Shown piece by piece: positions 9,963 through 60,528 of a DNA stretch of 64,000 nucleotides. The first letter of the stretch is position 1, and each line of letters begins with the position of its first letter. The notes beneath the pieces were generated by a model. The model did not search any database. It saw only the letters and a list, made by a program, of their open reading frames with translations, and was not told where the DNA came from. A program made the translations under genes and the position numbers. The stretch lies in IMG/VR virus record IMGVR_UViG_3300004481_000138. One strand, 5' to 3'. The DNA is from an uncultured virus (IMG/VR IMGVR_UViG_3300004481_000138) (Duplodnaviria > Heunggongvirae > Uroviricota > Caudoviricetes).

Positions 9963-10164
9963 GGAAAAAAATATAATTGATAAACGTATGGAACAATTAC
10001 GTTTACATTGCGATGCTTTTATTGAATCGCGCGGTGTGCGTATACTTGTTAGATTGCAATGTATTAGATGTGGTGCGTTGTTTGCTGAGGACCAATTAGA
10101 CTTATTAAATCAACATTTGGACATGCATAGTTATGATATGATGGTGAAACAAAATGATGGATAG
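9952..10164 (+). CDS. C2H2 zinc-finger protein
   Basis: CIRCG..F....LLNQHLDMH. Confidence 0.55.
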   Translation: MNNEEKNIIDKRMEQLRLHCDAFIESRGVRILVRLQCIRCGALFAEDQLDLLNQHLDMHSYDMMVKQNDG

Positions 10165-31189: not shown

Positions 31190-31197
31190 ATAAGACA

Positions 31198-31225
31198 AAT
31201 TTTTTTTATTTTTTTTTATTTTTTT
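31198..31225 (+). terminator. Oligo-T archaeal terminator after capsid gene 1
   Basis: Long T runs immediately after the stop; a similar tract follows capsid gene 2 at ~31553-31580. Confidence 0.6.
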
Positions 31226-31246
31226 AAAATATAGGAGGATGATATC

Positions 31247-31543
31247 ATGTTCATGGAGATAGCTATTGGAGCGATAGGAATAGGAATTGTATTAATGGTG
31301 GGCTATCTTGTTGTAGCTCAGGTCAAATCTGCAATGCCAACTTTGTATGTTGATAACCCGTGTTATGGATTACCATTAAATGGTTCATGTACAGGGGGAG
31401 ATAATACCAGCTTATTAATTGCTGATACGACAGTAACAACTGGTTTGAATAGTACTCAAGCAACGGTGTTTGCAGGATTTGGTTTGATTGCTGTGGGTAT
31501 AATTGTACTTGCGGCATTCGGCTTAATAAATGTCTTTAGGTAA
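31247..31543 (+). CDS. Capsid protein paralog with extended loop (minor capsid-like)
   Basis: Both helices essentially identical to 30971..31189; ~26-aa loop insertion with two Cys and NGS/NTS sequons. Confidence 0.65.
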   Translation: MFMEIAIGAIGIGIVLMVGYLVVAQVKSAMPTLYVDNPCYGLPLNGSCTGGDNTSLLIADTTVTTGLNSTQATVFAGFGLIAVGIIVLAAFGLINVFR

Positions 31544-31632: not shown

Positions 31633-31953
31633 GTGAGAAAAATGCTTGTTGAACTATTTGTGTTTTTTGAGATTGTTGCTATTGGTATGTTTATTGCTTC
31701 TTTTTTCACTAAGCAAGAAATACTTTGGGCAGTATCATTAATATTATTTGGTGTTCTGATGTTTACAAGCTATAATGTTGAATATTATGTTTATGAATGG
31801 AATGCCACTATTTCTGCTTATTATCCTGTTGCCATAACACATAGTTATCCTTATTTAATGGGTATTAATAGTTTATTTTTTGTTTTATCATTAATATTAT
31901 TATTATTTGATATATTTGATAAATATGGTAGCAGGTTTGCAGGTAAGGGATGA
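31633..31953 (+). CDS. Three-TM membrane protein
   Basis: Hydrophobic segments. Confidence 0.5.
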   Translation: MRKMLVELFVFFEIVAIGMFIASFFTKQEILWAVSLILFGVLMFTSYNVEYYVYEWNATISAYYPVAITHSYPYLMGINSLFFVLSLILLLFDIFDKYGSRFAGKG

Positions 31954-34749: not shown

Positions 34750-37700
34750 ATGCATAAAATTATTATTGGAATAATATTTTTACTAGCCATGGCTAGCGTA
34801 TATGCAACACAGCCTACACAACAATATAATAAGATATTACTCACCCCATTCTATATTAATGCTATGACGCAGAATATTCAATACAATTATACTGTAAATG
34901 TGAATACTCCTGACGGTATATCACAAGTCAAGACTGCTATATTAACGCTTGATGCATGGATTAATCCTACGAGGACTTTTAATGCATGGATGAATAATAT
35001 CCAATGCAATACTGCAAATTATACTATCTCAACAACGTATGCTTCTGCTGGCCGTGGAGTGGTCACTTTTGACTGTACCAATGCTATACTGCCTAATCAG
35101 GAGAATACTGTAAGGTTTGTAGTTACTGGAGGTAATATTGGTGCTTCTACTGCGTGGCTCGACTTGACTTATATGAATAATCCTCAAGGTACTACAGATA
35201 TCTTTGGTACTGAATATACTGAGGGTGATGATGCAACAATATTCTTGTTATTGAAAGATGCTAGCGGGATTGCTGTTTCTAATGCTACATGCATCGTTGA
35301 CATCTATTACCCGAATATCGCTAACCAGTCGCATCCTGAATGGATAGATAATGCGTTGATGATATATAAGGAGGAAGGATTGTATTATTATGACTTCACT
35401 GTGCCGCTCATTACCGGATTGTATATGGTGAATGCGCAATGTACATATATCACGGAAAACAACCAATATTATACATTAGAGTCTGGTAAGTCGCCTACAA
35501 GGAATGTTACTGCTGGAACTTATGTTGGAGATACTTTTGTGTTGAATGATTACCAAGAATGGCTTTATACACAATGTGATTCTTCTGGCGGTACTAAATT
35601 ATGTGATGCATGGTATCAATGGAATATCACTACATCATCTCTCGGCAATGTCACCAAGCTTTATGTACAATATCTTGGCGAGAATAGTGGCGCAAACCCT
35701 TTGACGCTTTACTGGTGGAATTGGTCTAATAATTCGTGGGTTGCATTACCAAATACTTTGACATTCAAGGCTACAGGTGCTGGTGGCGTACCTAGCGGTG
35801 TGGATGAGTATTTATCTAACGAGATACCAATAGCAGCTATTGGTAATGGAAGCAATACTGGACTTGTGAGAGTGCGTACATATACTACGTCTGGAAGCAC
35901 TTTTAAGCAGTGGGATAACTGGCTGGCACTGCGCACTACACGGTATGCGTCTGTTATTCAAGACCTTAAAGGTAGCGGAGAGGTGCATGTCACGAGTGCG
36001 CCTACTGGCGAGAATCGTTTCTTTAAGGTATTAACATGCGACGGCTTCATAGACGGCCGCTGCGACTTCTTCACAGATGATGCAGAATTCGACCTTCTAG
36101 AGGGTGAGCTTGAAGGCTTCTTAAACATTAGTGCTACATCTACCAAGAGTGATATTTCTATAAGCTTTAATACACCATTCGCTGTTGATTGTACTGCACT
36201 TTATTGGATTAGGGAATGGAACGGTACTGATTGGGTTGATTTTGAAGATTACGACCTTTATTCGCAGCCTGCTTATGAGAATTGTATAATCACGCTGCAT
36301 AAAAATATTGTTTCTGGTACAACATATGATTTCTGGTATAAGATGGATAATTATATGAAGTGGGAGGTTGATTGGACGAAGAAGGTGAGTGATAGTATAA
36401 ATACGAGCGTTGCGCCATTATGTAGTAATAAGAACTTCACTTATGATGTACCAATCACTGAGTCTACACCAACAACTAATGATAGCATCACTGATTTCTG
36501 CTACCAATTCTATGATGACCAGTACTGGATAAATAGCTATTATAGCGATAGCTTGGGCGTAGATATTGCTGGCGAGTATGCATCATATGTGCAGGAAATG
36601 CGCTACTACCGCAACGCCATATTCAATAGGTATATGTTCTTAGTGCTCGGTAACAATACTGGGTTGATGAGCGATTATTATGCTGAGAAAGTATGGAATC
36701 ATCCTGTAAGGAATCTTACATATTACCAAAATTTTAGTGTTGTACAGCAGGACATGACAAATTATACTCGTATTAATGAAGGTGTATGGAATAATAGTAT
36801 CAGGAATTTGACATATTACCCTCCACAGGTAGATATGACTAATTATACTAGGATAGATGAAACAATTTATGCTATTAATCAGAGCATATTCACTAGTATG
36901 TTATCTTATTATATGGATATATTGAACTTTATCCCTGGACTAGTATGGAATTATACTGATAGGAATCTAACATATTATCCTATACAAGTAGACTTGACAA
37001 ATTATACACTAATTAATCAAGGAGTGTGGACTTATAATAATCGTACATTAACATATTATGAACACACGGACATGACTAATTATACACTTATTAATGAGGG
37101 TGTATGGGCATACACTACTAGGAACCTGACATATTATCCCACACAAGAGGATTTAACAAACTATACTAATGTGGCCGTTAATGTATGGACATACATTACA
37201 AGGAATCTAACATATTATCCTCCAGTAAGTAATCTAACTGCACAAGATGTTTGGGAATATAGTAATAGGAACTTAACATATTATCCAGCACAAGTAGACC
37301 TAACAAATTATAGTTTGATTAATGAGGGTGTTTGGACATATGGTATAAGGAATTTAACATATTATGAAGATAAGACAAATTATACACAAATAACAGATAC
37401 AGTACCTACAGCAGTATGGACATATACAACAAGGAATCTAACATACTATCCACCACAAGTTGATTTAACTAATTATACATTAATAAATGAAGGTGTATCA
37501 ATTGCTGTTTGGGTTTATGGAACAAGGAATCTAACATACTATCCAACAGTTAGTAATCTTACAGCTGAAGACGTTTGGACTTATGTAACAAGAAATTTAA
37601 CGTATTACGAAAACTTTACAATATCACAAATAGATTTGACTAATTACAGTAAGATAAGTAATCTTACTGCTTTAGATGTTTGGGAATATATCAATCGTAA

Positions 37701-38436
37701 TTTAACATATTATCCAAACATGACAGTGAATACACAAGTAGTTAATGTTGATAATGTAACTGTGATTACACAAAACGTGACTGTACAGAATGTAACTGTG
37801 ATTACACAAAACGTGACAGTACAAAACGTGACTGTTAATGTACAGAATATAAGTGTTGATTATGGTATAATAGCAAGTAATGTTTGGAATTATACAGATA
37901 GAAACTTAACATACTATCCACAACAACAGGATTTGACTAATTATAGTTTGATATATGAAGGTGTTTGGCTATATAACATAAGGAACTTGACATATTATCC
38001 AGCACAACAGGATTTGACAAATTATAGTTTGATAAATGAGGGTGTTTGGACATACTTTAACAGGAATTTAACGTATTATGAAGCAAATAACATAACACCA
38101 AGTGATGTGTGGAATTATGGAACAAGGAACTTGACGTATTATCCAGTACAAAATGATATGACTAATTACACGTTAATCACCGAAAACGTGTGGAATTACA
38201 ACAACAGGACATTAACATACTACGAGATAAATAACATAACATCTAACGAGATTTGGGGCTATATCAACAGGACATTAACGTATTATGAGGTAAATAATAT
38301 AACAGCACAGGATATATGGGTTTATAACAACCGTACTTTGACATATTATCCAACAACAGATATAAATGATACAGCAATAGCAGAAACCGTATGGAATTAT
38401 ACTGCAAGGTATGCACACGGTATCATTTATTCATAA
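34750..38436 (+). CDS. Secreted repeat glycoprotein (fibre/stalk-like)
   Basis: Signal peptide; 19 copies of (V/I)WxxxxR(N/T)LTYY in the C-terminal half. Confidence 0.7.
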   Translation: MHKIIIGIIFLLAMASVYATQPTQQYNKILLTPFYINAMTQNIQYNYTVNVNTPDGISQVKTAILTLDAWINPTRTFNAWMNNIQCNTANYTISTTYASAGRGVVTFDCTNAILPNQENTVRFVVTGGNIGASTAWLDLTYMNNPQGTTDIFGTEYTEGDDATIFLLLKDASGIAVSNATCIVDIYYPNIANQSHPEWIDNALMIYKEEGLYYYDFTVPLITGLYMVNAQCTYITENNQYYTLESGKSPTRNVTAGTYVGDTFVLNDYQEWLYTQCDSSGGTKLCDAWYQWNITTSSLGNVTKLYVQYLGENSGANPLTLYWWNWSNNSWVALPNTLTFKATGAGGVPSGVDEYLSNEIPIAAIGNGSNTGLVRVRTYTTSGSTFKQWDNWLALRTTRYASVIQDLKGSGEVHVTSAPTGENRFFKVLTCDGFIDGRCDFFTDDAEFDLLEGELEGFLNISATSTKSDISISFNTPFAVDCTALYWIREWNGTDWVDFEDYDLYSQPAYENCIITLHKNIVSGTTYDFWYKMDNYMKWEVDWTKKVSDSINTSVAPLCSNKNFTYDVPITESTPTTNDSITDFCYQFYDDQYWINSYYSDSLGVDIAGEYASYVQEMRYYRNAIFNRYMFLVLGNNTGLMSDYYAEKVWNHPVRNLTYYQNFSVVQQDMTNYTRINEGVWNNSIRNLTYYPPQVDMTNYTRIDETIYAINQSIFTSMLSYYMDILNFIPGLVWNYTDRNLTYYPIQVDLTNYTLINQGVWTYNNRTLTYYEHTDMTNYTLINEGVWAYTTRNLTYYPTQEDLTNYTNVAVNVWTYITRNLTYYPPVSNLTAQDVWEYSNRNLTYYPAQVDLTNYSLINEGVWTYGIRNLTYYEDKTNYTQITDTVPTAVWTYTTRNLTYYPPQVDLTNYTLINEGVSIAVWVYGTRNLTYYPTVSNLTAEDVWTYVTRNLTYYENFTISQIDLTNYSKISNLTALDVWEYINRNLTYYPNMTVNTQVVNVDNVTVITQNVTVQNVTVITQNVTVQNVTVNVQNISVDYGIIASNVWNYTDRNLTYYPQQQDLTNYSLIYEGVWLYNIRNLTYYPAQQDLTNYSLINEGVWTYFNRNLTYYEANNITPSDVWNYGTRNLTYYPVQNDMTNYTLITENVWNYNNRTLTYYEINNITSNEIWGYINRTLTYYEVNNITAQDIWVYNNRTLTYYPTTDINDTAIAETVWNYTARYAHGIIYS

Positions 38437-39791: not shown

Positions 39792-40475
39792 ATGGCTATT
39801 AATCAAAATCCGGTACCAGCAGCCGGCTTTCGGTTTAACAGTTTTGAGGAGATAAAAAGTCATTCGTCTATCCTTTACAATGAAAGAATGGCTATTCTCT
39901 TTTATATTTTGGATATGAAATCTATAAGTATGAACACTAATTATAATGTTAATGATATACTTGAAGTTCGTGCAGTACTCAAACAAATTTATAATAATGT
40001 AAGAATGTTAATACGTTTTAATCCAACTTGTCGTGCTACATTAAATCTTGATACCAAGGATGATGGAATATATATTACTGATGTAGCATTAAGTACTATT
40101 GATAGAATGATTGAATATTGTGAGACTGGAGGGTATACTATTAGGAAGGTATATATTATAGTGCAGGAGATTAATCGTGTACAAACACTTTTGCGTGATA
40201 TCCTACAATATTTTCATTATTTTATACGTCCTGATTTCAGACAAAAACCTGATATCGATGTGGCAACATCTCAATACCAACAAATAGCTGATTTAACAAC
40301 TGTTGAAGAATTGCGTGCTTTAGTTGGCAGGAATAATTTAATTGATTTTGAGAGTCTTGGTAGTTCAAGGATTGAACTACAACAAGCTGAGGAATTAGAG
40401 GAAAGTCCTGAAAGTCTTGCAGAGTTAGAAGCCGACAACAACATTGCTGGTGAGACTGATGAAAAGAGTATGTGA
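39792..40475 (+). CDS. Hypothetical helical protein with acidic tail
   Basis: GAGGT RBS, 227 aa. Confidence 0.55.
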   Translation: MAINQNPVPAAGFRFNSFEEIKSHSSILYNERMAILFYILDMKSISMNTNYNVNDILEVRAVLKQIYNNVRMLIRFNPTCRATLNLDTKDDGIYITDVALSTIDRMIEYCETGGYTIRKVYIIVQEINRVQTLLRDILQYFHYFIRPDFRQKPDIDVATSQYQQIADLTTVEELRALVGRNNLIDFESLGSSRIELQQAEELEESPESLAELEADNNIAGETDEKSM

Positions 40476-41310
40476 TATATGTAATAAAGAATTTGAAACA
40501 TCACAATATAATAAAAAACATTGCAGTAAAAAATGTTCTAATATAAATAAACAAGAAAAATTAAAGCAATGGTTTTTAAAAAATAAAAAAGAAGTTTATG
40601 AAAAATTTGAGATTAAATGTGATATATGTAGTAAAATATTTTTTGGTAAAAAAAATCAAAAAAGATGTAGTAATAAATGTGCGCATATAAATAAATTACA
40701 AAATATTAATAAGAAAAGTTATGAAAATAATAAAGAAAAATATTTAAAAAAGAGAATAGAAAAAACGTGTGATATTTGTAATAAATTATTTTTAGGTGAT
40801 TTAACACAAAAAAGGTGTAGTATAAAATGTTCAAAAAAAGCAGGATTAAGGAGAGATTGGAATAGATATTTAGAGAATAAGGAAGAAAATGATAAAAAAA
40901 TAAAAACTAGAAATTTAAAAAATATTGACCATATGAGAAAAGTAAATAGAGAATATGCAAAATTAAAAAGAAAAAATGATGTAAATTTTAAAATTGCACA
41001 TAATTGTAGAATAAGAATAAGAGGAATGTTAAAAGTTAAAAATATAAAAAAATCATTACATAGTAGAGAATTAATTGGATGTTCCCCACAATTTTTTAAA
41101 GAACATTTAGAAAATCAGTTCAAGCCCGGTATGGCTTGGAGTAATTATAATTTTTATGGTTGGCATATTGACCATAAAATACCTTTGTCAAATTTTGATT
41201 TAACTAAAGAAGAGGAACAAAAAAGAGCTTTTCATTATTCTAATTGTCAACCGCTTTGGATGTGTGATAATTTGGTTAAGAGTGATAAATATGAAAGCAC
41301 ACCTAACTGA
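40459..41310 (+). CDS. HNH-type homing endonuclease-like protein with three Cys4 repeats
   Basis: Three CDIC..CSxKC units; C-terminal WHIDHKIP..FHYSNCQPLW..NL, paralogous to 30124..30624. Confidence 0.75.
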   Translation: MKRVCDICNKEFETSQYNKKHCSKKCSNINKQEKLKQWFLKNKKEVYEKFEIKCDICSKIFFGKKNQKRCSNKCAHINKLQNINKKSYENNKEKYLKKRIEKTCDICNKLFLGDLTQKRCSIKCSKKAGLRRDWNRYLENKEENDKKIKTRNLKNIDHMRKVNREYAKLKRKNDVNFKIAHNCRIRIRGMLKVKNIKKSLHSRELIGCSPQFFKEHLENQFKPGMAWSNYNFYGWHIDHKIPLSNFDLTKEEEQKRAFHYSNCQPLWMCDNLVKSDKYESTPN

Positions 41311-43525: not shown

Positions 43526-44071
43526 ACAAAGGTGATGGAAAAATGGTAAAATTGTGGAAAGAACAGACAGATTTGAAGAAGGTTACAGATAGGGTTTATC
43601 CTACTACTGGTAAGGATGAAGTTAGGGAGCAGGTTGATAAAGCAAGAAAAAGTAAGGCTGCAAAAGACCCTAAAGATGTTGTAGAAAATTTGAAACCAAA
43701 AAAGTATCCTAATTATAAAAATTAAAGGCGGTTAGGATGAAGAAGTTGAAGGAATATAAGTTTCATTATAATAATAAAGAAGTTGGTGTTATACTAGCGT
43801 ATGACCGTAATGAAGCTTATGATAAAGCCGAGGCAATTGCTAGGAGGATGGGTGAGGGAAAAACATTTGGTGTAAAAGTAGTGGAGAGGCTGATGTAAAA
43901 TGGTGAAAAACGCAAGGAAAATAATAAAAAAGACATATAGTAGGAGCAGCCAAGGTACAAACAGTTTTGGGCAGGGTGTATCAAGATGAGTAAAGTAAAA
44001 AAGAATGCCTCTAAGAAGGTGTTTAATAATATTAAGAGTGGATGGGGAATGAAATAGGAAGGTGGATTAAA

Positions 44072-44224
44072 ATGGAATTTTATAGCGTAGTGTTGAAGAA
44101 GAAAATAGAGATTCCTGCAAATAAAATAAAGACTGTTGTGAGGAAGGGCAGAAAGTTTGCTGTTGGCAAGTATGAAGCTAAAGGCAAAACTTATGAGGCT
44201 TGGCGAGTGTTAGGGAAGGTGTAA
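44072..44224 (+). CDS. Small basic beta protein resembling archaeal chromatin protein CC1
   Basis: MEFYSVVLKKKIEI..RKGRKFAVG..WRVLGK resembles the recalled CC1 pattern (F..K..RG..FAV..YRLLGK). Confidence 0.45.
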   Translation: MEFYSVVLKKKIEIPANKIKTVVRKGRKFAVGKYEAKGKTYEAWRVLGKV

Positions 44225-44226
44225 AA

Positions 44227-44412
44227 ATGGTATATAAACCAAAAATTACTAGTTGGGGTATAAAGAAAGGAACATCTATTGAGATGGAACATACCAAAAG
44301 TAAAAAGTTTGCTAAAAAGATAGCAATGGACCATTTGCATGAATTTGGTGATGCTTATTATAAAGGGTTAGTAAAACTTGAAAGAAAATTAGCAAAACAA
44401 CAAAAGAAATGA
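44227..44412 (+). CDS. DUF5661-like viral protein
   Basis: G..IEMEHT....A.KIAMDHL.E...YY..L..LE motif. Confidence 0.6.
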   Translation: MVYKPKITSWGIKKGTSIEMEHTKSKKFAKKIAMDHLHEFGDAYYKGLVKLERKLAKQQKK

Positions 44413-44546
44413 TAAGAAAAGTCCGTAATAAACAATTATGGAAGGTAGTGAGTGAGAACACAGGCAGAAGTTTTGGCACTTATAGGAGTAAGAAGAAGGC
44501 GAAAAATCGTCTTCGCGAAATTGAATTTTTTAAACATAAAAGGTGA
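44409..44546 (+). CDS. Small basic viral protein (not in ORF track)
   Basis: MIRKVRNKQLWKVVSENTGRSFGTYRSKKKAKNRLREIEFFKHKR; ATGA overlap with the upstream stop. Confidence 0.5.
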   Translation: MIRKVRNKQLWKVVSENTGRSFGTYRSKKKAKNRLREIEFFKHKR

Positions 44547-44747
44547 TGTAAGATGACAGATGGTGTACCAAACATTGTAGGACCTATAGCAGGTTTAGTA
44601 GGCATTGGTGTTATGGCTGGTGTGGCAAATGAAGTAATTAAAACTGTTGGTGAACAAGGACAGTTTAAGGGAAAGAAGAAGAAGGCTAGATATGTAACTA
44701 AATCTTTCTCTGAAGGAATGGATGAAAGGATTAGAAGGATGATTTAA

Positions 44748-45008
44748 ATGAACCCAGTAAACAAGATATTAGGCGGTTATAAAGACCCAAGTAAAAATAA
44801 AAAAGCAGAATGGGTTACAATCAGTGGGCAAAAATATTTAGTTGAATATAGAAAATTTATATGTCCAAATTGTAATAAAAAAGTTGATGGTGAATTTACT
44901 TGGGAATATATGGGTGGCGGAAATGTAACGTGTCCATTATGTAATGAAAGTTTTGAATATCCAATTAGAGATAGTGATAAATTTGTTGGATTAAAAAAAA
45001 GAGGATGA
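44748..45008 (+). CDS. Small protein with ILG tag and Zn ribbon
   Basis: MNPVNKILGGYKDPSKNK; CPNC..CPLC. Confidence 0.6.
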   Translation: MNPVNKILGGYKDPSKNKKAEWVTISGQKYLVEYRKFICPNCNKKVDGEFTWEYMGGGNVTCPLCNESFEYPIRDSDKFVGLKKRG

Positions 45009-45014
45009 TATAAA

Positions 45015-45362
45015 GTGAATCCAGTTGAAAGGATATTAGGATATGATATAAGTAAAAATAGAGATATTATTGATAAGAAAGGATATTTGCAAGATAGTGA
45101 GAGAGGCACTAAAAAGTTAAGGAAAATATTTGTTAAACGGGCAAAATCCGTTGCTAATCCCTTACCTAACAACCCTTATAATGTTGAAAGACAGGATGAA
45201 TATGTGCCAATATGGGTTCCTTTTGAGGAGAAAGAAAAGATTGATGTTAATAATGAAATATTTAAAATTATTGATAACCCAAAATTAACACAAGTACAAA
45301 AAATAGAAAAACTTAAACCATATGAAACATGGATGAGAAATAAAGGTTGGAGGTATCCATAA
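45015..45362 (+). CDS. Small basic protein with ILG-x-D tag
   Basis: GTG start, NPVERILGYDISKNR. Confidence 0.55.
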   Translation: MNPVERILGYDISKNRDIIDKKGYLQDSERGTKKLRKIFVKRAKSVANPLPNNPYNVERQDEYVPIWVPFEEKEKIDVNNEIFKIIDNPKLTQVQKIEKLKPYETWMRNKGWRYP

Positions 45363-45579: not shown

Positions 45580-48237
45580 ATGAAAAAGTTATTATTATTC
45601 ATGATAATATTATTATTGCCATTGTTTGTATCTGCAACACTTACTGATGGACTTGTATCCTATGTACCTTTCAATGATGGAACAATAGGCGCAGCTATAG
45701 ATGTATATGGTATATATGGCATGACAGGCACAGCAGAGCCAGCAAATATTGTTGGCTATGACTGGTTTAATATGGTCAGCAGCTCAGCTAATATGTCTAG
45801 TGCTGTGCCTCTTGATGAAGGCTATACTGTGAGCATGTGGCTTTATGGCTGCTTGGAAGATTATGCTTTTTCTAAAGGCGAAATGGACGGTAGCGGCAAC
45901 GCTATTGCATTCGGGCATCAAGCAGCTCCTGAAGGTTATGAAGAATATAACGGCAGGAATGTATTTTCTGTCTATCTCATCCAAGATACATGGGATGCTT
46001 ATCAAGGTTATTATTTCAAGAATTGGAGCGGAGTATCTAGTGTTGGATGTTCTTTCAATCTTACTGTGCCTACACATTTTATCGTGACGATAGAAAATTT
46101 TAATGCTTCACTATATGTCGATAGCATAAATATCGAACAGATAAACTTTACAGATGATGGCGGTGCAGTAGATAATGTTACTACAGATAATGTTTTCGAG
46201 TTTGCAGGCGTCTTATCCTCCTTTGGCGGAGATTATTATGTGAAAGATTTTGCTGTATGGGATAGGATATTATCAGGAGCAGAAATTTCTGAGCTATACG
46301 CAAATAATGGGAATCCGTTGTTTAATGGTTCTGGAACAGCAGAAGACCCTTACCAAGTGACTAGCTGTACAAACCTGCAAGAGGTGAATAATGATTTATC
46401 AGCATATTATCTTGTCATGAATGACATAAATTGTTCAGATACTGTAAACTGGAATAGCGGTTTAGGATTCATCCCAATAGGGAATGCAACACAAAGCACT
46501 ATGGAAGTTGGTAGGCTCTTTATGGGCGTATTTGATGGGCAAGGCTATACTATTTCAGGATTATTCATAAATCGCACAACGATGCATTCGGGATTGTTTG
46601 GTGCATCTGGTGGCGTGATAAAAAATGTTGTATTGACAGATGCCTATGTCTATGCAGCCAGTAATCAGGTAGGCATCCTTGCAGGTGGCATAAACACTAG
46701 CGGTATAGTATATAATTGTTCTTCGTCAGGATTTGTTTCTGGTGAAGAATATGTCGGTGGGCTAGTGGGTTTTGTGCTTGGCAGCGTATATACTTCTCGC
46801 AGTGATGCGCATGTCGAGTGCATAATTGCTGAATGCGGCGGATTAGTTGGTGGCACATACGATGTTGGAAGCATCTATGATTCATATAGCATGGGTATAT
46901 TGGATGATGAAAGCAAAGATGCTACTGGAGGATTTCTAGGTTATGCTGAAGGCTCAGGCATAATATATCATGTATATACTAATAATTCTATTGAATCATC
47001 TGCTGGTGGCGGGCTGATAGGGTCAAATGAAGGTCTTACTATCGATAATTCTTATTATGATGCAAATACTACTGGTGCTGGAAATGATAATGGCTTAGGG
47101 ACACCAAAATCTACTGCTGAGATGAAGACTCAAGGCACATTTATTGATTGGGATTTCGATAATATATGGCAGATATGTGCCGAAGTTAATGATGGCTATC
47201 CTTCATTGATAGGTGTTGATGATGAATGTGTTGCATGCACATCTAATTGGTCTTGTAGTGGTTATGGTGCCTGTAATATTTCTGATTTGCGTCCTTGTAA
47301 TGAAACTGTTGATTTGAATGTTTGTGGTGAGGAATATTCTGGGGATTATAGTGAGTTTACTCCACAAGCATGTGATTATTGTGCACCTGACTGGTCTCCT
47401 TTTTATCAACCCACTACTTGTCCTAGTAATAGTTTATGGACTAAATTATATACTGACCTAAATAGTTGTGGACAGCCAGCACCAGGAGATAATGGAACAC
47501 TAGTTGGCTGTATATATACACCACCAGTATATGAAAGTCAGACATTTGAAGGCAAGACAACAACAGATTTAAATACTGTAGAAAACATTAGTGCAGTAGA
47601 AAATTTTACAATAGCTTCATCCTCAGGGGTTGTTGAATTTACCAGTACTGTTGATTTATCAAATATTACTAATGTGGAACAGATTATATTAGTAACTTCA
47701 AATTTGATATCAGTTAATGTTACAGCAGTTCCATCACTTAATACATCAGCAGATGTAATATTAGATGTACCAGCACCAAACATATTTAGTTCACCGTGTG
47801 ATGATTTTAATTTATATTATAGTAGTGGTTATTATACCACAGTTGAAGATATAATTGCTAATGGTATTGTTGTTGCAACAAGTGCTAATATAGGAGGAGA
47901 TTGCACAGATAGTAATATATGTACCAATGTCCAATGTATTAATGGTCAATTATCATTTACAGCACAACACTTTGATGGATTTGGTGTGGGATTAGGTACT
48001 CCTGAGGCAGTTGAAAGTTGTAAAAGTACACAAGCAACTATATTTGCGGCATTTAGTATTATTGCATTATTTGTTATAGTAGGGGCGGCGTTTCTTATAA
48101 TAAATATGTTGAAAGGTGGTGATTTTGATAGTGGTTTAATAATTGCTGGTATTATAGGTTTTATTGCTGTTGCAATAGTAGTATTTATTGGATATTTGAT
48201 AATAAGTGAAGTAGCAGCCGGAATATGTCTTATATAA
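45580..48237 (+). CDS. Secreted adhesin (LamG + GLUG/beta-helix + Cys-rich) ending in a permuted capsid-like two-helix module
   Basis: Signal peptide; DFAVWDRILS (LamG); GSGTAEDPYQV, FDGQGYTISGL, VGGLVG (GLUG-type); C-terminal helices match the capsid helices in swapped order. Confidence 0.75.
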   Translation: MKKLLLFMIILLLPLFVSATLTDGLVSYVPFNDGTIGAAIDVYGIYGMTGTAEPANIVGYDWFNMVSSSANMSSAVPLDEGYTVSMWLYGCLEDYAFSKGEMDGSGNAIAFGHQAAPEGYEEYNGRNVFSVYLIQDTWDAYQGYYFKNWSGVSSVGCSFNLTVPTHFIVTIENFNASLYVDSINIEQINFTDDGGAVDNVTTDNVFEFAGVLSSFGGDYYVKDFAVWDRILSGAEISELYANNGNPLFNGSGTAEDPYQVTSCTNLQEVNNDLSAYYLVMNDINCSDTVNWNSGLGFIPIGNATQSTMEVGRLFMGVFDGQGYTISGLFINRTTMHSGLFGASGGVIKNVVLTDAYVYAASNQVGILAGGINTSGIVYNCSSSGFVSGEEYVGGLVGFVLGSVYTSRSDAHVECIIAECGGLVGGTYDVGSIYDSYSMGILDDESKDATGGFLGYAEGSGIIYHVYTNNSIESSAGGGLIGSNEGLTIDNSYYDANTTGAGNDNGLGTPKSTAEMKTQGTFIDWDFDNIWQICAEVNDGYPSLIGVDDECVACTSNWSCSGYGACNISDLRPCNETVDLNVCGEEYSGDYSEFTPQACDYCAPDWSPFYQPTTCPSNSLWTKLYTDLNSCGQPAPGDNGTLVGCIYTPPVYESQTFEGKTTTDLNTVENISAVENFTIASSSGVVEFTSTVDLSNITNVEQIILVTSNLISVNVTAVPSLNTSADVILDVPAPNIFSSPCDDFNLYYSSGYYTTVEDIIANGIVVATSANIGGDCTDSNICTNVQCINGQLSFTAQHFDGFGVGLGTPEAVESCKSTQATIFAAFSIIALFVIVGAAFLIINMLKGGDFDSGLIIAGIIGFIAVAIVVFIGYLIISEVAAGICLI

Positions 48238-48324
48238 TCATATTCTTTTAATGAATATAGAAAATTCATAAACTTTATATATTATATAGTGTTTATTCTA
48301 TTAATGGTAAGTTTAAATAAGTAG

Positions 48325-49047
48325 GTGATGTATATGAAGATTGTTGAAGAGTTTAATTCTTTGCAGGGTGAAGGAAAATATTTAGGTGTACCAAGTTTCT
48401 TCGTTCGTACAACTGTGTGCAATCTTAGATGTGCATGGAAAAATAATGATTATACAATAACCATATGTGATAGTGCATATACTAGTTGGAATCCTGAGAA
48501 AGGTAAGGATGTTGATGGCAAACATATTTATGATAAAGTGAAAGGTACACAAACTAAGCATGTTGTAATCACGGGGGGTGAGCCAACCTTACAGCCTGAC
48601 CTGGCTGATGTGGTAACTTACCTAGTTGAGAATGGGTTGAGTGTAACAATTGAGACTAATGGTACAAAGTATGTTAAACTGCCAAAAAATACTTTTATTA
48701 GTATTTCACCAAAAACCAGTAATAGTTATGCTCAAGAAAAAGGTAGTATTGAGGAAAAAATGCATAAGAAGAATAATGTTTTTATTGATGCTATTAGGCA
48801 ATGGATTGAGAACAATGATTATCAATTAAAGTTTGTTTATAATAGTTTGAGTGATATTAAAGAAATTGAGTATATACAAACAGAATTAAATGTTCCAAAT
48901 AATAAGATATATCTTATGCCTCAAGGTATTAATGTGTTGCAGTTTAAGGATAAACAGAAAGAGTTGTTTGATTTATGTATTAATAAAGGTTGGACTTATA
49001 CTCCTCGTTTACATATTGAGATTTTTGGGAATATTCGTGGCATATGA
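48325..49047 (+). CDS. queE: QueE-like radical SAM (7-carboxy-7-deazaguanine synthase family)
   Basis: SLQGEG, CNLRC..(insert)..CDS, VITGGEPTLQ, IETNGT, SISPK, LMPQG, PRLH. Confidence 0.85.
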   Translation: MMYMKIVEEFNSLQGEGKYLGVPSFFVRTTVCNLRCAWKNNDYTITICDSAYTSWNPEKGKDVDGKHIYDKVKGTQTKHVVITGGEPTLQPDLADVVTYLVENGLSVTIETNGTKYVKLPKNTFISISPKTSNSYAQEKGSIEEKMHKKNNVFIDAIRQWIENNDYQLKFVYNSLSDIKEIEYIQTELNVPNNKIYLMPQGINVLQFKDKQKELFDLCINKGWTYTPRLHIEIFGNIRGI

Positions 49048-55505: not shown

Positions 55506-55588
55506 TACCGGATGCAGGATTCGAACCTGCGGTAGCACTAAGCCATTGGGTCTAGACCAATGCTGGTTGACCTCTGCAGCAATCCGGT
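55506..55588 (-). tRNA. tRNA-Leu(TAG), C33
   Basis: Cloverleaf with long variable arm; loop TC-TAG-AC. Confidence 0.8.
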
Positions 55589-55591
55589 GTA

Positions 55592-55703
55592 TGCGAGGAG
55601 TAGGATTTGCACCCACGGTGTGAAACTTATTCAACCAGATATCTCAGCTAGTCTTGAGTTTAGCCCTTAAGTCTGGCCCCTTCGACTACTCGAGCATCCT
55701 CGC
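55592..55703 (-). tRNA. tRNA-Leu(TAA) with 25-nt BHB intron at 37/38
   Basis: CTTA/TGAG central helix, AGG and ATA bulges, GCTA/TAGC outer helix. Confidence 0.85.
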
Positions 55704-55707
55704 TTTA

Positions 55708-55797
55708 TGGAGCTGTGGGGAATTGAACCCCATGCATCCTCATCTCTTTACCATTATGGTATGCAAGTGAGGCGGTCTACCGATGGCCTACAGTCCC
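55708..55797 (-). tRNA. tRNA-Ala(TGC) with 18-nt intron
   Basis: G3:U70; CCTCA/TGAGG stem; relaxed BHB. Confidence 0.8.
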
Positions 55798-55798
55798 A

Positions 55799-55873
55799 TG
55801 GAGCCACCAGAGGGATTTGAACCCTCACCCAGCTGCTTACAGGGCAGTCGCACGACCGTCGTGCTGTGATGGC
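55799..55873 (-). tRNA. tRNA-Thr(TGT), C33, encoded CCA
   Basis: GCCATCA/TGGTGGC, U73; loop CC-TGT-AA; C8/G14. Confidence 0.75.
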
Positions 55874-55879
55874 GGTTGA

Positions 55880-55950
55880 TGGGGTTACCGTGATTTGCAC
55901 ACGGGCTGACGGTTCTGGAGACCGTTATGCTCCTGCTACATTACAACCCC
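55880..55950 (-). tRNA. tRNA-Trp(CCA)
   Basis: ACGGT-CTCCAGA-ACCGT. Confidence 0.8.
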
Positions 55951-56026
55951 TGGCGTAGCCAAAGAGACTTGCACTCTTACCCTCGTGCTTAACAGGCACG
56001 TGCTCCACTACTTGAGCTATGGCCAC
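55951..56026 (-). tRNA. tRNA-Asn(GTT), encoded CCA
   Basis: CGTGC-CTGTTAA-GCACG, G73. Confidence 0.85.
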
Positions 56027-56215
56027 AGAGTTTATTTAAGCCAGAAAATTCTGGTTTTTTTTTTGAAATGTTTGTTTTAGAATTTTAATGGCTTAAATAA
56101 AACATTTAGTTGGTGAGCGAACTACTCAATAATAGATTCGCCGTCCAATTACATGCTGTTATATATGCCATAGTATAATAAATCGATACTTATATATAAA
56201 GTTTATGATTTTTTA

Positions 56216-56725
56216 TTAGTCGTCGTCCACATCCTCATCTAAGTTTGTCATTAAAAATCTTATAAGTTGCCCAAGTAACTCTAGTGATATTTCTATGCTT
56301 ATTCCTTCCTCTTTAACCAATCTTTTTCTTAATTGCTTGTTCTGTTTTTTCATCACTTTCCAATTTATTTCTTCAATCTTATGTATTTTGTATGTTGCAC
56401 CCCAAAATGTTAATATATTCTTTCCTCTATGATAACCATTATGACAACTTTTGCATAATGTTATACAGTTTTTGATGCTGTCCTTACCATTATTTTTCTG
56501 GAATTTGACATGATGCATTGTTAATGGACTATTAGTATGTTTACAATCTTTATTAATGCATTTAAATCCGTCTCTTTGGAATACCAAGCATTTCAAGATA
56601 TATTTTTCATAAATCCTTATTTTTAGTTCATTATTTAGTTGTGTTAGGCTGTTTTCATCCCATGTGCTAAAATAACTACCTAAGTCCTTTATATTCCTGT
56701 ATATTTCATAATTTTCGTTTTTCAT
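56216..56725 (-). CDS. HNH endonuclease
   Basis: VFQRDGFKC..C..MHHV..NGKDSIKNCITLCKSCH. Confidence 0.8.
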   Translation of the reverse strand: MKNENYEIYRNIKDLGSYFSTWDENSLTQLNNELKIRIYEKYILKCLVFQRDGFKCINKDCKHTNSPLTMHHVKFQKNNGKDSIKNCITLCKSCHNGYHRGKNILTFWGATYKIHKIEEINWKVMKKQNKQLRKRLVKEEGISIEISLELLGQLIRFLMTNLDEDVDDD

Positions 56726-56732
56726 TTTTTAT

Positions 56733-57389
56733 TTACCTTGCTGGAACTTGTATTTTACTCAACCAATACTTTTCAGTATCAACATTCATAATGGCAAGTT
56801 TACCAAGCCAACCTACACCACAGTCCATCATTATAAGTTTTCCAAAACGTATTGGATTATTATATTGATAGGTTTGTGTGGTTGTATGGCCTACAAATAC
56901 ACGTTCATATTCTTTGATTTTTAATCCATTTCTACATCTTTCAATCAAGTCTCTATCCCATGTTAAAGTGTGCCTATCCTGTTTATCTATAGGAAATTTT
57001 GGATTATATCCGCCATGAACAAACAATCTATTGTTTTCTATATAGTAATACACACCGTTATTAAAAAAGTTTTGATGTGTAACTGGTATCATGTATTTAA
57101 ATTGAGCATAAGATTTTATTGTGTTTTTTCCACCTTGTGAAAGCCATATATCTTCACTCCAACCACTTTTCATATAATCCATAAACCATTCATCATGATT
57201 GCCCATTATAAATACTATATTTTTGATTTTAAGTAATTCTTCAACTACTTCATAAGTGTTATATCCACCATCAGTTACATCTCCTAATACTATAAGTTTG
57301 TCCTCATCATAGTTAAATTTACATAAACTTAAAACTTCTTTTAATGCTTCAATTCTTCCGTGGATGTCGCCAATCACAAATGTTGCCAT
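56733..57389 (-). CDS. Calcineurin-like metallophosphoesterase (PPP/ApaH-like)
   Basis: GDIHG, GDVTDGG, GNHD, VHGG, GHT motifs. Confidence 0.9.
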   Translation of the reverse strand: MATFVIGDIHGRIEALKEVLSLCKFNYDEDKLIVLGDVTDGGYNTYEVVEELLKIKNIVFIMGNHDEWFMDYMKSGWSEDIWLSQGGKNTIKSYAQFKYMIPVTHQNFFNNGVYYYIENNRLFVHGGYNPKFPIDKQDRHTLTWDRDLIERCRNGLKIKEYERVFVGHTTTQTYQYNNPIRFGKLIMMDCGVGWLGKLAIMNVDTEKYWLSKIQVPAR

Positions 57390-57393
57390 TGTA

Positions 57394-57465
57394 TGGGAAG
57401 ACAGGGAGTTGCACCCTGATGACTACGGCTTCAGCGTAGCGCATTCCTGGTTCTGCCATCTTCCC
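57394..57465 (-). tRNA. tRNA-Phe(GAA)
   Basis: CTACG-CTGAAGC-CGTAG. Confidence 0.8.
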
Positions 57466-57472
57466 TTGAGAG

Positions 57473-57545
57473 GTTAATAGTTGGGGGTTGAACCCAATCT
57501 TCTGGTGTCACAAACCAGTGTGCAAACCTTTACACCACTATTAAC
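57473..57545 (-). tRNA. tRNA-His(GTG) with encoded G-1:C73
   Basis: CTGGT-TTGTGAC-ACCAG. Confidence 0.85.
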
Positions 57546-57548
57546 ACA

Positions 57549-57622
57549 TGAGCTTGCTGGAATTTGAATCCAGACCCTCTCGTTCGTGGCGAGATATGAT
57601 ATCCTAATTTCACTACAAGCCC
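57549..57622 (-). tRNA. tRNA-Arg(ACG), A34 and C33
   Basis: TCTCG-CCACGAA-CGAGA; A20 present. Confidence 0.8.
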
Positions 57623-57628
57623 TTTAAA

Positions 57629-57703
57629 TGACCTTACTGGGAATTGAACCCAGGTTATTCCTGCTTAGAAGGCAGGTGCCATCATCCATTAGGCGATAAG
57701 GCC
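57629..57703 (-). tRNA. tRNA-Arg(TCT)
   Basis: CCTGC-CTTCTAA-GCAGG. Confidence 0.85.
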
Positions 57704-57708
57704 ATGTA

Positions 57709-57780
57709 TGGAAATACTGAGAGTTGAACTCAGTTTGCCTGCGTATCAGGCAGGTAGCCTAACCGTTAGCTGATATTTCC
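57709..57780 (-). tRNA. tRNA-Ile(GAT)
   Basis: CCTGC-CTGATAC-GCAGG. Confidence 0.85.
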
Positions 57781-57785
57781 ATATA

Positions 57786-57857
57786 TACAGGAACGGAGAA
57801 TTGAACTCCGATAACTGATGCATAAGACCAGCTCACTAACCATTGTGATATTCCTGT
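57786..57857 (-). tRNA. tRNA-Ile(TAT)
   Basis: CTGGT-CTTATGC-ATCAG; G37. Confidence 0.8.
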
Positions 57858-57861
57858 GTAA

Positions 57862-57933
57862 CGATGCCAACGGGATTTGCACCCGTGTCCAAGGATAGAC
57901 AGTCCAAGATGCTAACTTCTACACCATGGCATC
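57862..57933 (-). tRNA. tRNA-Asp(GTC), weak anticodon stem
   Basis: TTGGA-CTGTCTA-TCCTT (two U-U mismatches), G73. Confidence 0.7.
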
Positions 57934-57937
57934 ATAA

Positions 57938-58012
57938 TGGGGCACACGCGATTTGAACGCGCATTCTCTTGGTCCCAGGCCAAGGATGTTTACCAAGTTA
58001 CACTAATGCCCC
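57938..58012 (-). tRNA. tRNA-Pro(TGG), C33
   Basis: CTTGG-CCTGGGA-CCAAG. Confidence 0.8.
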
Positions 58013-58020
58013 TTTACTAA

Positions 58021-58095
58021 TGCTCCCAACGGAATTTGAATCCGTGTTTTCAGATTGAAAGTCTGATGTGATTATCCTGGCTACACCATGGGAGC
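58021..58095 (-). tRNA. tRNA-Glu(TTC)
   Basis: TCAGA-CTTTCAA-TCTGA. Confidence 0.85.
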
Positions 58096-58101
58096 ATTTG
58101 C

Positions 58102-58175
58102 AACGGTGTCAGTTCCAGACCTGACCGTGAACTTCCTTTCAGAAGTCCAGTTGGATTTGAACCAACGTCCCCGTC
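58102..58175 (-). ncRNA. Circularly permuted tRNA-like RNA (T arm, loop-closed acceptor stem, D arm)
   Basis: GACGG-GGAC-GTTGG TTCAAAT CCAAC-TGGACTTC-TGAAAG-GAAGTTCA-CG-GTCA GGTCTGGAAC TGAC-A-CCGTT. Confidence 0.7.
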
Positions 58176-58177
58176 TA

Positions 58178-58252
58178 TGCGGCTACCCAGATTTGAACTG
58201 GGACCGTCATCGGTGTAAACGATGTGCCATGTCCAGATTAGACCATAGCCGC
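58178..58252 (-). tRNA. tRNA-Val(TAC)
   Basis: CATCG-TTTACAC-CGATG. Confidence 0.85.
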
Positions 58253-58357
58253 TTATTTTAATGGCAATTCATTTATTATGCTGTTCTCAGGTAAGGGGTC
58301 TTGCCACCATTTATGTAGTTTAAGTCTGTCATACAATTCATTTATTGTTTCCATGGA

Positions 58358-58428
58358 TGCAGTTGCTGGGATTTGAACCCAAAACACCTCCTTGGTGGAG
58401 AGGTATGATACCATTTCACCACAACTGC
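58358..58428 (-). tRNA. tRNA-Gly(ACC), A34 and C33
   Basis: GCAGTTG/CAACTGC; CCTCT-CCACCAA-GGAGG. Confidence 0.75.
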
Positions 58429-58431
58429 GTA

Positions 58432-58502
58432 TGCGTCAGGCGAGAGTTGAACTCGCGCAGCCTGCTTGGAAGGCAGGAATGCTACCGTAACATTTCTGAC
58501 GC
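58432..58502 (-). tRNA. tRNA-Gly(TCC)
   Basis: CCTGC-CTTCCAA-GCAGG; A8/T14. Confidence 0.8.
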
Positions 58503-58507
58503 ATGAA

Positions 58508-58596
58508 TGCTCCTGGCCAGATTTGAACTGGCGTCTCAAAGTTTCTTCATTATTAATTCCAAAGCCTTGTATGCTTGGCCGCTACACCACAGGAGT
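58508..58596 (-). tRNA. tRNA-Gln(TTG) with 16-nt BHB intron
   Basis: CAAGG/CTTTG stem; CTTT/GAAG helix with GGA and AAA bulges. Confidence 0.8.
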
Positions 58597-58602
58597 ATAT
58601 AA

Positions 58603-58676
58603 TATCCCTGCCAAGATTTGAACTTGGGTTCTTCCGTTCCAGAGACGGATGACTTTAACCACTCGTCTACAGGGAT
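58603..58676 (-). tRNA. tRNA-Gln(CTG)
   Basis: TCCGT-CTCTGGA-ACGGA; A1-U72. Confidence 0.85.
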
Positions 58677-58679
58677 ATA

Positions 58680-58755
58680 TGGCGGGTCTGCACAGATTTT
58701 CACTGTGATTCTCCTGGGTAAGAGCCAGGTATGTTATTATTTACACCACAGACCC
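58680..58755 (-). tRNA. tRNA-Lys(CTT), encoded CCA
   Basis: CCTGG-CTCTTAC-CCAGG, G73. Confidence 0.8.
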
Positions 58756-58834
58756 TTCATGCCAACCTCCTCAGCACCCACAAGCATACAGAGGCAACCA
58801 GTTATTTCAAACCATGGGACGGTTTTAGCATGAA
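58756..58834 (-). ncRNA. Unassigned 79-nt structured spacer RNA
   Basis: Closing stem TTCATGCTAA/TTGGCATGAA exactly fills the gap between two tRNAs; inner hairpins AAACC/GGTTT and CCTC/GAGG. Confidence 0.5.
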
Positions 58835-58969
58835 CGGGTTTGCTGGGTATCGAACCCAGACCTCACTGCTAACTCCAGGATGTACTCACTCCCACATGGT
58901 TTTGCAGTTGTGTAGTCAACCTATCCATCCTTAAAAGGCAGGTGCGCTATGCCATTACGCCACAAACCC
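58835..58969 (-). tRNA. tRNA-Lys(TTT) with ~61-nt intron
   Basis: CT-TTT-A then intron closed by AGGATG/CATCCT; CTTT/GGAG helix and TTA bulge; G73. Confidence 0.75.
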
Positions 58970-59043
58970 TGGTCTGCTTGTTGGAAATCGAATCCAAATA
59001 TGACGGGCTACAGCCGTTTGCATTACCTTTATGCTACAAGCAG
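58970..59043 (-). tRNA. tRNA-Tyr(GTA), archaeal type, encoded CCA
   Basis: C1-G72, A73, short variable loop; loop CT-GTA-GC. Confidence 0.85.
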
Positions 59044-59048
59044 TTATA

Positions 59049-59123
59049 TAGAGATATCCGGATTTGAACCGGAACTCTTCGGCTCATGAGGCCGACGGTT
59101 TAACCAAATTAGCCTATATCTCT
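59049..59123 (-). tRNA. tRNA-Met(CAT)
   Basis: TCGGC-CTCATGA-GCCGA; A1-U72 (initiator-like) but without the three consecutive G-C anticodon pairs. Confidence 0.8.
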
Positions 59124-60528
59124 ATTTATGTATAGAATCTTTTTCTTGTTCCCATAAAGGGAAAGTATAAAAAATTTCTTAGAAAATTTCTCAAAATGGG
59201 AGCAATGAAAGATTTTATGATTGCCTGCCGACTATAAAGTATGCAGGCACAATTCGCTCTCCGTGTTCCATTTTGTCTATCATAAAGTGTGAATGTATTT
59301 TACCTCAAAAAAAATTCATCTGGCGACGTTGACCGTTTTCATTACAGGCATCACCAGGGGTCATTTATTAATTCTATTATAGTAAAACATTACTAATATT
59401 TAAAGTTTATGATTTTAATGATGGTTTAATCAAGTTTTTTGGTATCTTTAAGTCTAGTAAAACACCTGTTATTTTTACTTTCAAACCCATTTTTTCTAGC
59501 TCCTTCTTTATATCATGTGGAGTCCATGGATTATTTTTCGGAATAATTATATCAATAGTGCATTTCATTTTGTTTCAACTCTTTTATCAATTTCCTTCTA
59601 GGACTACAAATATGTGGCAGACTAAGTATATCTCTACCTACTATAAGACCACAATATGGACATTTTTCAATCATTTCACATCAGCCTCTTCTCCTTCAAA
59701 TTTTTCTCTTATATGTTTTACATACCCTTTGAGTTCTTGTCTTAACATTTCTTCAAGTGTTGCTTCTCTCCCATCCAGCCAACGATATGTTTTGGCATAT
59801 TCTTTCTTGATATGGCAGTGTGTGATTTTGTATTCTTCACCAAATCTTTGTCCAATAATAAATCCCAAAACCGCATCATCATTTGATGGAAGATGTTTAA
59901 AATTATGATTTATTAATGATGTGAAGAGAAAGCAACTGCTTCTCAAAGATAATAAAATAATGTCATCTTCTTTAAATATTATCTTTCTTCGAGTATCTTT
60001 CTCGTATTCTTTCTGGAGTTGTAAGAATTTATTGTAGATATCAGAATCCAATTCTTTAATATAGCTATTAATCATTTTGTGTCATTTCCTCTCTTTCACC
60101 TTACTCCTTATGCCCATATATTATCATACGCTCAATACCTGAAAGCTTCACAGCAACAAGTGTGTCTCTAATGGTATTTTTCACCTTAAGATATTGCTGA
60201 TATGCATTATTATACTCACGGGTACGCACATCAGGATTCTCGAAAACATTAGTTCTCACAGCATATACCTTTATCAACATCTTCAACGAATCCACAAGTA
60301 TTTCCATATCATCCATACACATCACCTTTTATATTATTATCCTGTTCGGACTTATTCGTTATTCTCGGGGTTGTTACCCCATTATCCGAACAGGATTGTT
60401 TATTTAATGGACAGTATATATTAAGACATTCTATATTATCACATTCAAACCCTTTAAAATTCAGGCATTGCCTGGCTATCTTAATAAGGTTGGGTCTATC
60501 TTCATCTATTGTTTTAGACATTTTTTCA

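Follow-up and report, generated by a model that had tools for sequence, protein, structure and literature searches.

Background

In the shell of the spindle virus SSV19, the loop of the coat protein forms the outer surface and both termini lie on the inner one, and the tailspike VP4 of 1236 amino acids (aa) ends in a C-terminal hydrophobic helical bundle on which VP1 hairpins stack (PMC9351363). Paralogous minor capsid proteins have been described as VP3 in fuselloviruses and as two major capsid protein (MCP) paralogues in wyrdviruses and nanohaloarchaeal DNSVs (PMC9351363, 10.1101/2021.07.29.453957, 10.1101/2025.02.15.638363), while the core genes of spindle viruses of Thermococcales include those for concanavalin-A/LamG lectin proteins with predicted transmembrane (TM) helices (PMC12934983). 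Circular permutation of virus-like-particle (VLP) coat proteins has been engineered for display (PMC12259173). That spindle viruses anchor adhesins through hydrophobic C-termini and have paralogous minor coat proteins is already known. Here, we describe an 885-aa secreted adhesin whose C-terminus carries a two-helix module related to the virus's own small hairpin proteins, encoded in a 64,000-nucleotide (nt) stretch of DNA from an uncultured virus (IMG/VR record IMGVR_UViG_3300004481_000138), the whole of which is called the window below.

Judged from its sequence, the tail of this adhesin, comprising the last ~72 residues, is a circularly permuted paralogue of the hairpin protein. As far as the literature searched shows, the use of a permuted coat-type hairpin as a portable anchor appears new; full-text searches of it returned neither such an anchor nor this virus lineage.

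Results

Permuted helix order of the adhesin tail

The tail and two tandem hairpin genes are laid out in the window as follows.

45580..48237, plus strand: adhesin gene, 885-aa secreted glycoprotein with a permuted hairpin tail (open reading frame (ORF) list)
48019..48021, plus strand: Cys814, immediately ahead of helix A (Cys in 75/88 tails at this column)
48022..48114, plus strand: tail helix A, aa 815-845, homologous to hairpin helix 2 (AlphaFold2 (AF2) helix at aa 808-844)
48115..48135, plus strand: linker of 7 residues, aa 846-852, an AF2 turn standing where the C-terminus of the hairpin protein would be joined to its N-terminus
48136..48234, plus strand: tail helix B, aa 853-885, homologous to hairpin helix 1 and containing Cys883
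48226..48228, plus strand: Cys883, within helix B
30971..31189, plus strand: hairpin protein copy 1, 72 aa, hydrophobic alpha-hairpin, putative major capsid protein (ORF; AF2)
31247..31543, plus strand: hairpin protein copy 2, 98-aa paralogue, putative capsid protein (ORF; match to the tail profile)

Helix A is identical to hairpin helix 2 at 17 of 30 positions in the 98-aa protein and 15 of 30 in the 72-aa protein, and helix B is identical to hairpin helix 1 at 10 of 27. Profiles were built for each helix from 119 members of the hairpin family, and the tail helices were scored against them, with 5000 shuffles for comparison. Against the helix-2 profile helix A scored 39.4 bits (z 10.3), which none of the 5000 shuffles reached, and against the helix-1 profile helix B scored 22.2 bits (z 4.7), reached by two of them. 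The wrong pairings were not significant, with 0.1 bits for helix A on the helix-1 profile and 11.6 bits for helix B on the helix-2 profile, the latter reached by 399 of 5000 shuffles.

At the level of families, 88 tails were aligned to the 119 hairpin proteins with hhalign; the set excludes P0128, which is a fragment of 59 aa, and P0136, in which the module is N-terminal. Tail columns 3-34 matched helix 2 (probability 97.8%, E 6.8e-13) and columns 40-69 matched helix 1 (95.3%, E 2e-8), with block scores of 56.7 and 40.7, respectively, while neither cross pairing matched (scores 4.3 and 6.2). In 150 column shuffles per block the mean was 9.0-9.1 (standard deviation 1.8) and the maxima 16.7 and 15.6, so that no shuffle exceeded 40% of the observed block score, and reversed blocks scored 12.1 and 8.9. 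The original prediction had called for alignment to a doubled MCP sequence with shuffling statistics; a reordered profile, helix 2 plus helix 1, proved colinear with tail columns 4-69 (score 85.4, probability 99.1%, E 1.5e-18), and the native-order profile broke into two local matches.

A hidden Markov model (HMM) of the tail recovered the hairpin proteins in the other direction. Both copies in the window matched as two domains in swapped order (40.6 + 31.6 and 40.1 + 31.5 bits), whereas no other ORF of the 536 listed in the window scored above 12.3 bits, and all native hairpin genes of related loci matched in the same way (independent E-values (i-E) of 4e-7 to 8e-12). In the relative G001, which has three tandem hairpin genes, the tail aligns across a gene junction, where helix 2 of one gene is followed by the stops and then by helix 1 of the next (E 2.4e-8). 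Some family members come close to being intermediates; one of them, P0241, was retrieved by a search with the 72-aa protein (75% identity, covering 39% of that query) and has a second helix that nearly equals hairpin helix 1. Among tail columns conserved at 60% or more, the hairpin consensus residue is present in 13 of 15 in helix A and 8 of 9 in helix B, including a G-Y pair shared with the hairpin core (G in 98% of tails, Y in 78%). The hhalign, tail-HMM, shuffle and cross-pair results thus agree that A corresponds to helix 2 and B to helix 1, and the swapped order that had been proposed is real. Ten further loci (L002-L011), in which the loop and helix 2 are 39% identical, gave no match to the tail HMM and were treated as spurious.

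The tail as a portable module

When the last 90 residues were searched against 1.84 billion cluster representatives (E<=1e-3), 90 representatives were found, one of them the window's own, with lengths of 59-1482 aa; fusions of the helix 2-helix 1 type are not peculiar to this adhesin, and the tail is a conserved portable module. In 89 of the 90, no more than 8 residues separate it from the C-terminus, and it is preceded by 0 to 1412 aa (median ~220). The exception, P0136 (267 aa), carries the module after the signal peptide, with an ectodomain that follows the second Cys and ends in a poly-Pro run, and because the module starts and finishes on one side, it can serve at either end of a protein. 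Signal-like N-terminal segments were present in 69 of 82 tail proteins with a complete start, and the median sequon density was 4.5 per 100 aa.

Searches of viral contigs with the single tail and with a 12-row tail alignment found no relative, and a metagenome scan for tail genes gave only two loci. The neighbours of both resemble the window's small genes at 44042..44747, which ties the tail family to this virus lineage, on only two contexts. The window is the only contig known to hold the tail gene and hairpin genes together.

The original prediction had placed a Cys at each new end of the module, where the native loop would have been opened. Cys814 and Cys883 are present, and such residues co-occur across the family: 74 of 88 tails have both, 13 have neither, and only one (P0170, which looks truncated) has a single Cys. 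Their spacing is 65-71 residues, mostly 68-69. AF2 predicted the 90-aa tail as a helix at residues 13-49, a turn at 50-55 and a second helix at 56-89 (predicted local distance difference test (pLDDT) 83.6), and the 72-aa protein as a hairpin with helices 2-29 and 35-71 (pLDDT 80.2). The two-helix hairpin predicted for both is too simple a fold to discriminate. In the tail model the cysteines fall at positions 19 and 88, at distances of 33.5 and 35.5 residues from the turn centre and so at the same level, and the pair may staple the hairpin by a disulfide. The family columns of the linker carry G in 65 and D in 45 of 88 tails, and the predicted place of the linker is the inner or cytoplasmic side.

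The tandem hairpin proteins as putative capsid proteins

The 72- and 98-aa hairpin proteins are probably the capsid protein of this virus. The smaller one, at ~72 aa, falls within the 70-100 aa range of spindle coats and has, like them, a short loop between two hydrophobic helices. Their occurrence as tandem paralogues, the sequons and variable Cys-rich inserts of their loops, and their extreme conservation and abundance point the same way, and no other capsid type was detected among the window proteins scanned. The named ESM Atlas clusters nearest to the 72-aa protein are VP1_VP3 and His1_capsid (score 0.84), which serve as a lead only.

The two genes (30971..31543) stand in the same frame, separated by a gap of 57 nt with two stops, and G001 has three copies (L012, 1378..2208). 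What sets the 98-aa copy apart is a loop insert of 26 aa that contains two Cys and sequons. The family comprises 894 clusters, with at least 77% identity across the 120 matches listed. Native loops carry sequons and tolerate Cys-rich, sequon-rich inserts, the whole proteins then reaching 127-143 aa, and some relatives have long basic or acidic N-terminal extensions. The loop sequons, Cys-rich inserts and occasional basic N-terminal extensions are consistent with the loop-out, termini-in arrangement of SSV19, as read from sequence features.

In profile searches of Pfam, NCBIfam, PHROG and PDB, neither the hairpin proteins nor the tail matched any family significantly. Foldseek gave best E-values of 1.8 against PDB and 0.27 against BFVD, which is uninformative, as expected for helical hairpins, and the VIA wide fold search returned only generic helical hairpins (Z 8-9.7).

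The hairpin genes are neighboured by conserved small TM proteins and giant lectin-type proteins, and lectin-like giant proteins are encoded in the window as well. Directly upstream of the hairpin-gene block, an ORF of 3494 aa (18775..29259, plus strand) has a signal-like N-terminus and matches to LamG (Laminin_G_3, E 5e-21), Big_3_2, DUF2341 and PKD-like domains. Its three C-terminal hydrophobic segments (aa 3423-3490) form a tail that is conserved in G001 and is not hairpin-like, making it a candidate tailspike of the VP4 type, anchored by three helices. The hairpin genes are closely followed by those of two more large secreted proteins, one of 932 aa with collagen-like repeats and tail-fibre PHROG matches (31950..34748, plus strand; E 5.9e-19) and one of 1228 aa (34750..38436, plus strand), both with signal-like N-termini and no C-terminal hydrophobic anchor. 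An endonuclease VII/HNH-like gene (30124..30624, plus strand; phrog_1035, E 2.8e-12) lies between two small structural-module genes that adjoin each other in G001, and looks like a homing-endonuclease insertion.

The adhesin gene and its neighbourhood

Ahead of the tail, the 885-aa protein, which contains 23 N-x-S/T sequons and 25 Cys, has the following features.

45580..45636, plus strand: signal-peptide-like N-terminus, aa 1-19 (hydrophobic segment aa 1-28; presumed cleavage site)
45988..46290, plus strand: weak LamG-like stretch, aa 137-237 (Pfam Laminin_G_3, 18.1 bits, E 0.0032)
46360..47199, plus strand: GLUG-repeat region, aa 261-540 (Pfam Glug, 29.7 bits, 3 stretches)

The protein had been described as a signal-peptide-exported LamG/GLUG adhesin. 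The signal peptide holds, as does the GLUG assignment, since the Pfam Glug score passes its gathering score of 20.5 bits; in addition, phrog_30905 matches aa 261-398 (E 3.8e-8) and Glug-bearing clusters make up the majority of the 10 nearest ESM Atlas structure rows. The LamG assignment is weak, with Laminin_G_3 scoring under the Pfam gathering cut-off of 27.6 bits and LamG clusters in the ESM Atlas feature search reaching 0.77-0.79, a lead only.

An antisense ORF over the tail (47946..48269, minus strand, 107 aa) has no family evidence and was treated as non-coding, because an open frame is expected opposite a hydrophobic, GC-skewed coding stretch. Upstream of the adhesin gene (44748..45362, plus strand) are two copies of a small multi-copy gene family sharing an N-terminal motif that starts MNP; the related contig L027 (1181..9261) has ~10 copies, several with Cys-x-x-Cys pairs. 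Directly downstream is a QueE-like radical-SAM gene (48325..49047, plus strand; phrog_2076, E 3.9e-49). Together with a phosphoribosyltransferase-domain gene (8306..8749, plus strand), it may serve 7-deazaguanine modification of nucleic acid.

Virus and lineage context

The window, with ~30% G+C, belongs to an archaeal virus or provirus of large size. Among its products are an MCM helicase, TFIIB, a tyrosine integrase, a DEAD-box helicase and the QueE-like enzyme. No HK97, portal or terminase family was matched among the window proteins scanned, and the gene content fits a spindle-type archaeal virus. A P-loop ATPase of 355 aa (10154..11221) was examined as a candidate companion AAA+ morphogenesis ATPase; it matched phrog_5484 (DnaA-like, E 7.4e-5), and nSTAND3 fell below its cut-off. 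The minus strand at 55506..59124 holds a dense array of 23 transfer RNA genes, of which ARAGORN called 19 and Rfam added four of 89-135 nt, lengths that suggest intron-bearing genes. Further HNH genes lie at 40444..41310 and 56216..56725.

None of 50,697 GenBank records of phages or archaeal viruses matched the lineage; with 894 hairpin-protein clusters at 90% identity, it is abundant as well as undescribed. The genome-contig scan found hairpin genes, 69-81% identical to those of the window, only on six short contigs (L028-L033) of bacterial metagenome-assembled genomes (MAGs). The labels of these MAGs span five unrelated taxa (Bacilli, Thermotogaceae, Rhodobacter, Burkholderiales and Clostridia), and most likely the contigs are viral and mis-binned, so no host is named from them.

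Discussion

Given a tail that repeats the hairpin protein in permuted order, we lean towards a reading in which the permuted coat-type hairpin is a shell anchor that displays the adhesin. If the coat loop is outside and the termini inside, a large domain on a native terminus would point inward. Once the loop is opened and the old termini are joined, the order becomes helix 2, turn, helix 1, with both chain ends outside. A Sec signal peptide would export the N-terminal LamG/GLUG ectodomain before helix A halts transfer. Helix A, the helix-2-like segment, would then span from outside to inside, the short Gly/Asp linker would stand in for the two termini of the hairpin protein on the inner face, and helix B, helix-1-like, would return outward. 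Both ends of the module would come to lie at the outward-facing loop position of the hairpin, where the two conserved Cys could staple it. As neither helix has lost its native orientation or its conserved packing residues, the module can take a place between coat hairpins. It would insert first into the cell membrane and then into the virion shell, with the adhesin displayed on the particle, and its placement could be either dispersed over the shell or at the tip. That the adhesin would emerge at the outer loop position, as originally predicted, agrees in topology with the solved SSV19 shell (PMC9351363).

The difference in carrying capacity between the two forms, with modest loop inserts in native-order members (proteins of 127-143 aa) and up to ~1400 aa on the permuted form, fits a division of labour, the search for longer native-order members being of limited sensitivity. 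As to origin, duplication and truncation is a general model for circular permutation, and the module most likely arose when tandem coat genes standing in one frame were read through and the product was then trimmed.

Several observations weigh against a permuted coat hairpin that anchors the adhesin in the shell. When 23 members were scanned against Pfam at E<=10, VP1_VP3 (PF06281) and His1_capsid (PF25665) were unmatched, the PDB profile search of the hairpin family gave 0 matches at E<=10, PHROG matches of the hairpin proteins were weak (phrog_16261, E 0.0045 and 0.42), and SSV19 VP1 (7xdi_A) came 12th in the Foldseek ranking (E 3.5, template-modelling score 0.36). The original interpretation stands for the permutation and the conservation of the Cys pair and agrees with SSV19 in topology, while the capsid identity of the hairpin proteins, the entry of the tail into the lattice and the disulfide are inferred. 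With HMMER and its composition correction, the window's helix B alone scored 4.2-5.6 bits (i-E 0.64-1.6), so that the helix-1 half of this single sequence, taken by itself, is suggestive. Several helix-2 glycines that are invariant in the hairpins are not retained in the tails, and third-codon identity of the tail to the window's hairpin genes is low (8-14 of 27-30 positions), which indicates an old paralogue that has not been kept identical to the coat protein. A tree-based test lacked the power to show phylogenetic independence of the Cys co-occurrence (one supported contrast; 9 vs 10 changes on the best tree). Finally, the permuted-tail gene is absent from three IMG/VR relatives with hairpin genes (82.6, 125 and 116 kb), making the module accessory, and the adhesin gene lies 14 kb from the hairpin genes, beyond the integrase and a block of small ORFs, a position that also suits a lysogeny-expressed membrane protein.

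These last two points are shared with the alternative that survives best, namely that the tail is a membrane anchor only, seated in the host cytoplasmic membrane or a lipid envelope and making no specific contact with the hairpin protein. The hairpin would simply have been reused, for example for lysogenic conversion, superinfection exclusion or cell adhesion. In favour of this, the gene stands in a variable region beside the integrase, outside the structural block, and is missing from 3/3 relatives, two long hydrophobic helices suffice to anchor a protein in a membrane, and a preprint on Thermococcales viruses lists host interaction and superinfection exclusion among the possible roles of viral TM proteins (PMC12934983). 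However, 21 of 24 conserved tail columns carry the hairpin consensus (T, F, G-Y, V) although the tails are only 30-50% identical, and a generic anchor would need no conserved flanking Cys pair. Moreover, the spindle-virus coat protein is itself membrane-inserted before assembly, so membrane anchoring and entry into the shell are compatible. We regard anchoring in a membrane alone as rather unlikely.

Less probable still is a role as strand nucleator or terminator at the virion tip, in which a few copies would start or cap strands of coat protein. There is precedent, with SSV19 VP4 (1236 aa) and B210 ending in hydrophobic three-helix bundles on which VP1 stacks (PMC9351363) and the adhesins of fuselloviruses and halspiviruses located at one pointed end (10.1101/2021.07.29.453957). 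The tail, however, has two helices and not three, the 3494-aa LamG protein directly upstream of the hairpin genes is the better VP4-like candidate, and the many small (~270 aa) tail-bearing glycoproteins resemble decoration proteins. Chance or compositional similarity of TM helices, or an assembly artefact, could draw on the weak single-sequence scores of helix B and the shared composition of hydrophobic helices, but this explanation is effectively refuted and its likelihood negligible, as none of the shuffle, column-shuffle, reversal and cross-pair controls reproduces the observed scores, no other of the window's ORFs rises above 12.3 bits, and 89 further cluster representatives from independent assemblies have the same architecture.

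Returning to the permuted hairpin as a shell anchor, we tentatively extend it to the lineage as a whole, a proposal slightly more likely to be wrong than right: these viruses of ~80-125 kb may possess a plug-in display system, in which a stapled permuted hairpin replaces a coat subunit and carries any exported domain, from <10 to ~1400 residues, having originated by read-through of tandem coat genes. If this is true, adhesins could be gained, lost and swapped without touching the structural module, which would explain how spindle-type archaeal viruses attach diverse receptor-binding proteins to a fluid, hydrophobic shell. It would also be a natural circular permutation that moves the termini of a capsid protein to the particle surface, as in engineered VLP display. 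The tandem coat genes offer a testable model of how the module arose, and the succession of Cys, helix-2-like segment, Gly/Asp turn, helix-1-like segment with G-Y, and Cys provides a signature for virion surface proteins in metagenomes.

Comparison with known systems

A close parallel is the tailspike VP4, with the adaptor B210, of SSV19 (Fuselloviridae), likewise a large glycosylated receptor-binding protein with C-terminal hydrophobic helices set against a hairpin coat. Its anchor, unlike the one here, is a Z-shaped three-helix bundle that is not reported as coat-homologous in the passages of that paper considered (PMC9351363), whereas the tail in the window has two helices that make up a coat-type hairpin in permuted order, flanked by Cys. 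The minor capsid paralogues of spindle viruses resemble the module in being a duplicated hairpin coat copy that serves as a second shell component, and the window has tandem paralogues of its own; those described are small, stand-alone proteins in native helix order, with none reported as a permuted C-terminal module in the portions of the sources drawn on. The Thermococcales lectin proteins share the modular lectin-type ectodomain joined to a hydrophobic anchor and the variability among close relatives, but their anchor is described, in the part of the preprint considered, as a predicted TM domain, without coat homology or permutation (PMC12934983). In engineered VLP permutation, as here, coat termini are moved to a surface-exposed site for fusion of cargo. 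That case is laboratory work on an unrelated coat fold (PMC12259173), while the permutation described here is natural, belongs to an archaeal virus lineage and extends over ~90 clusters.

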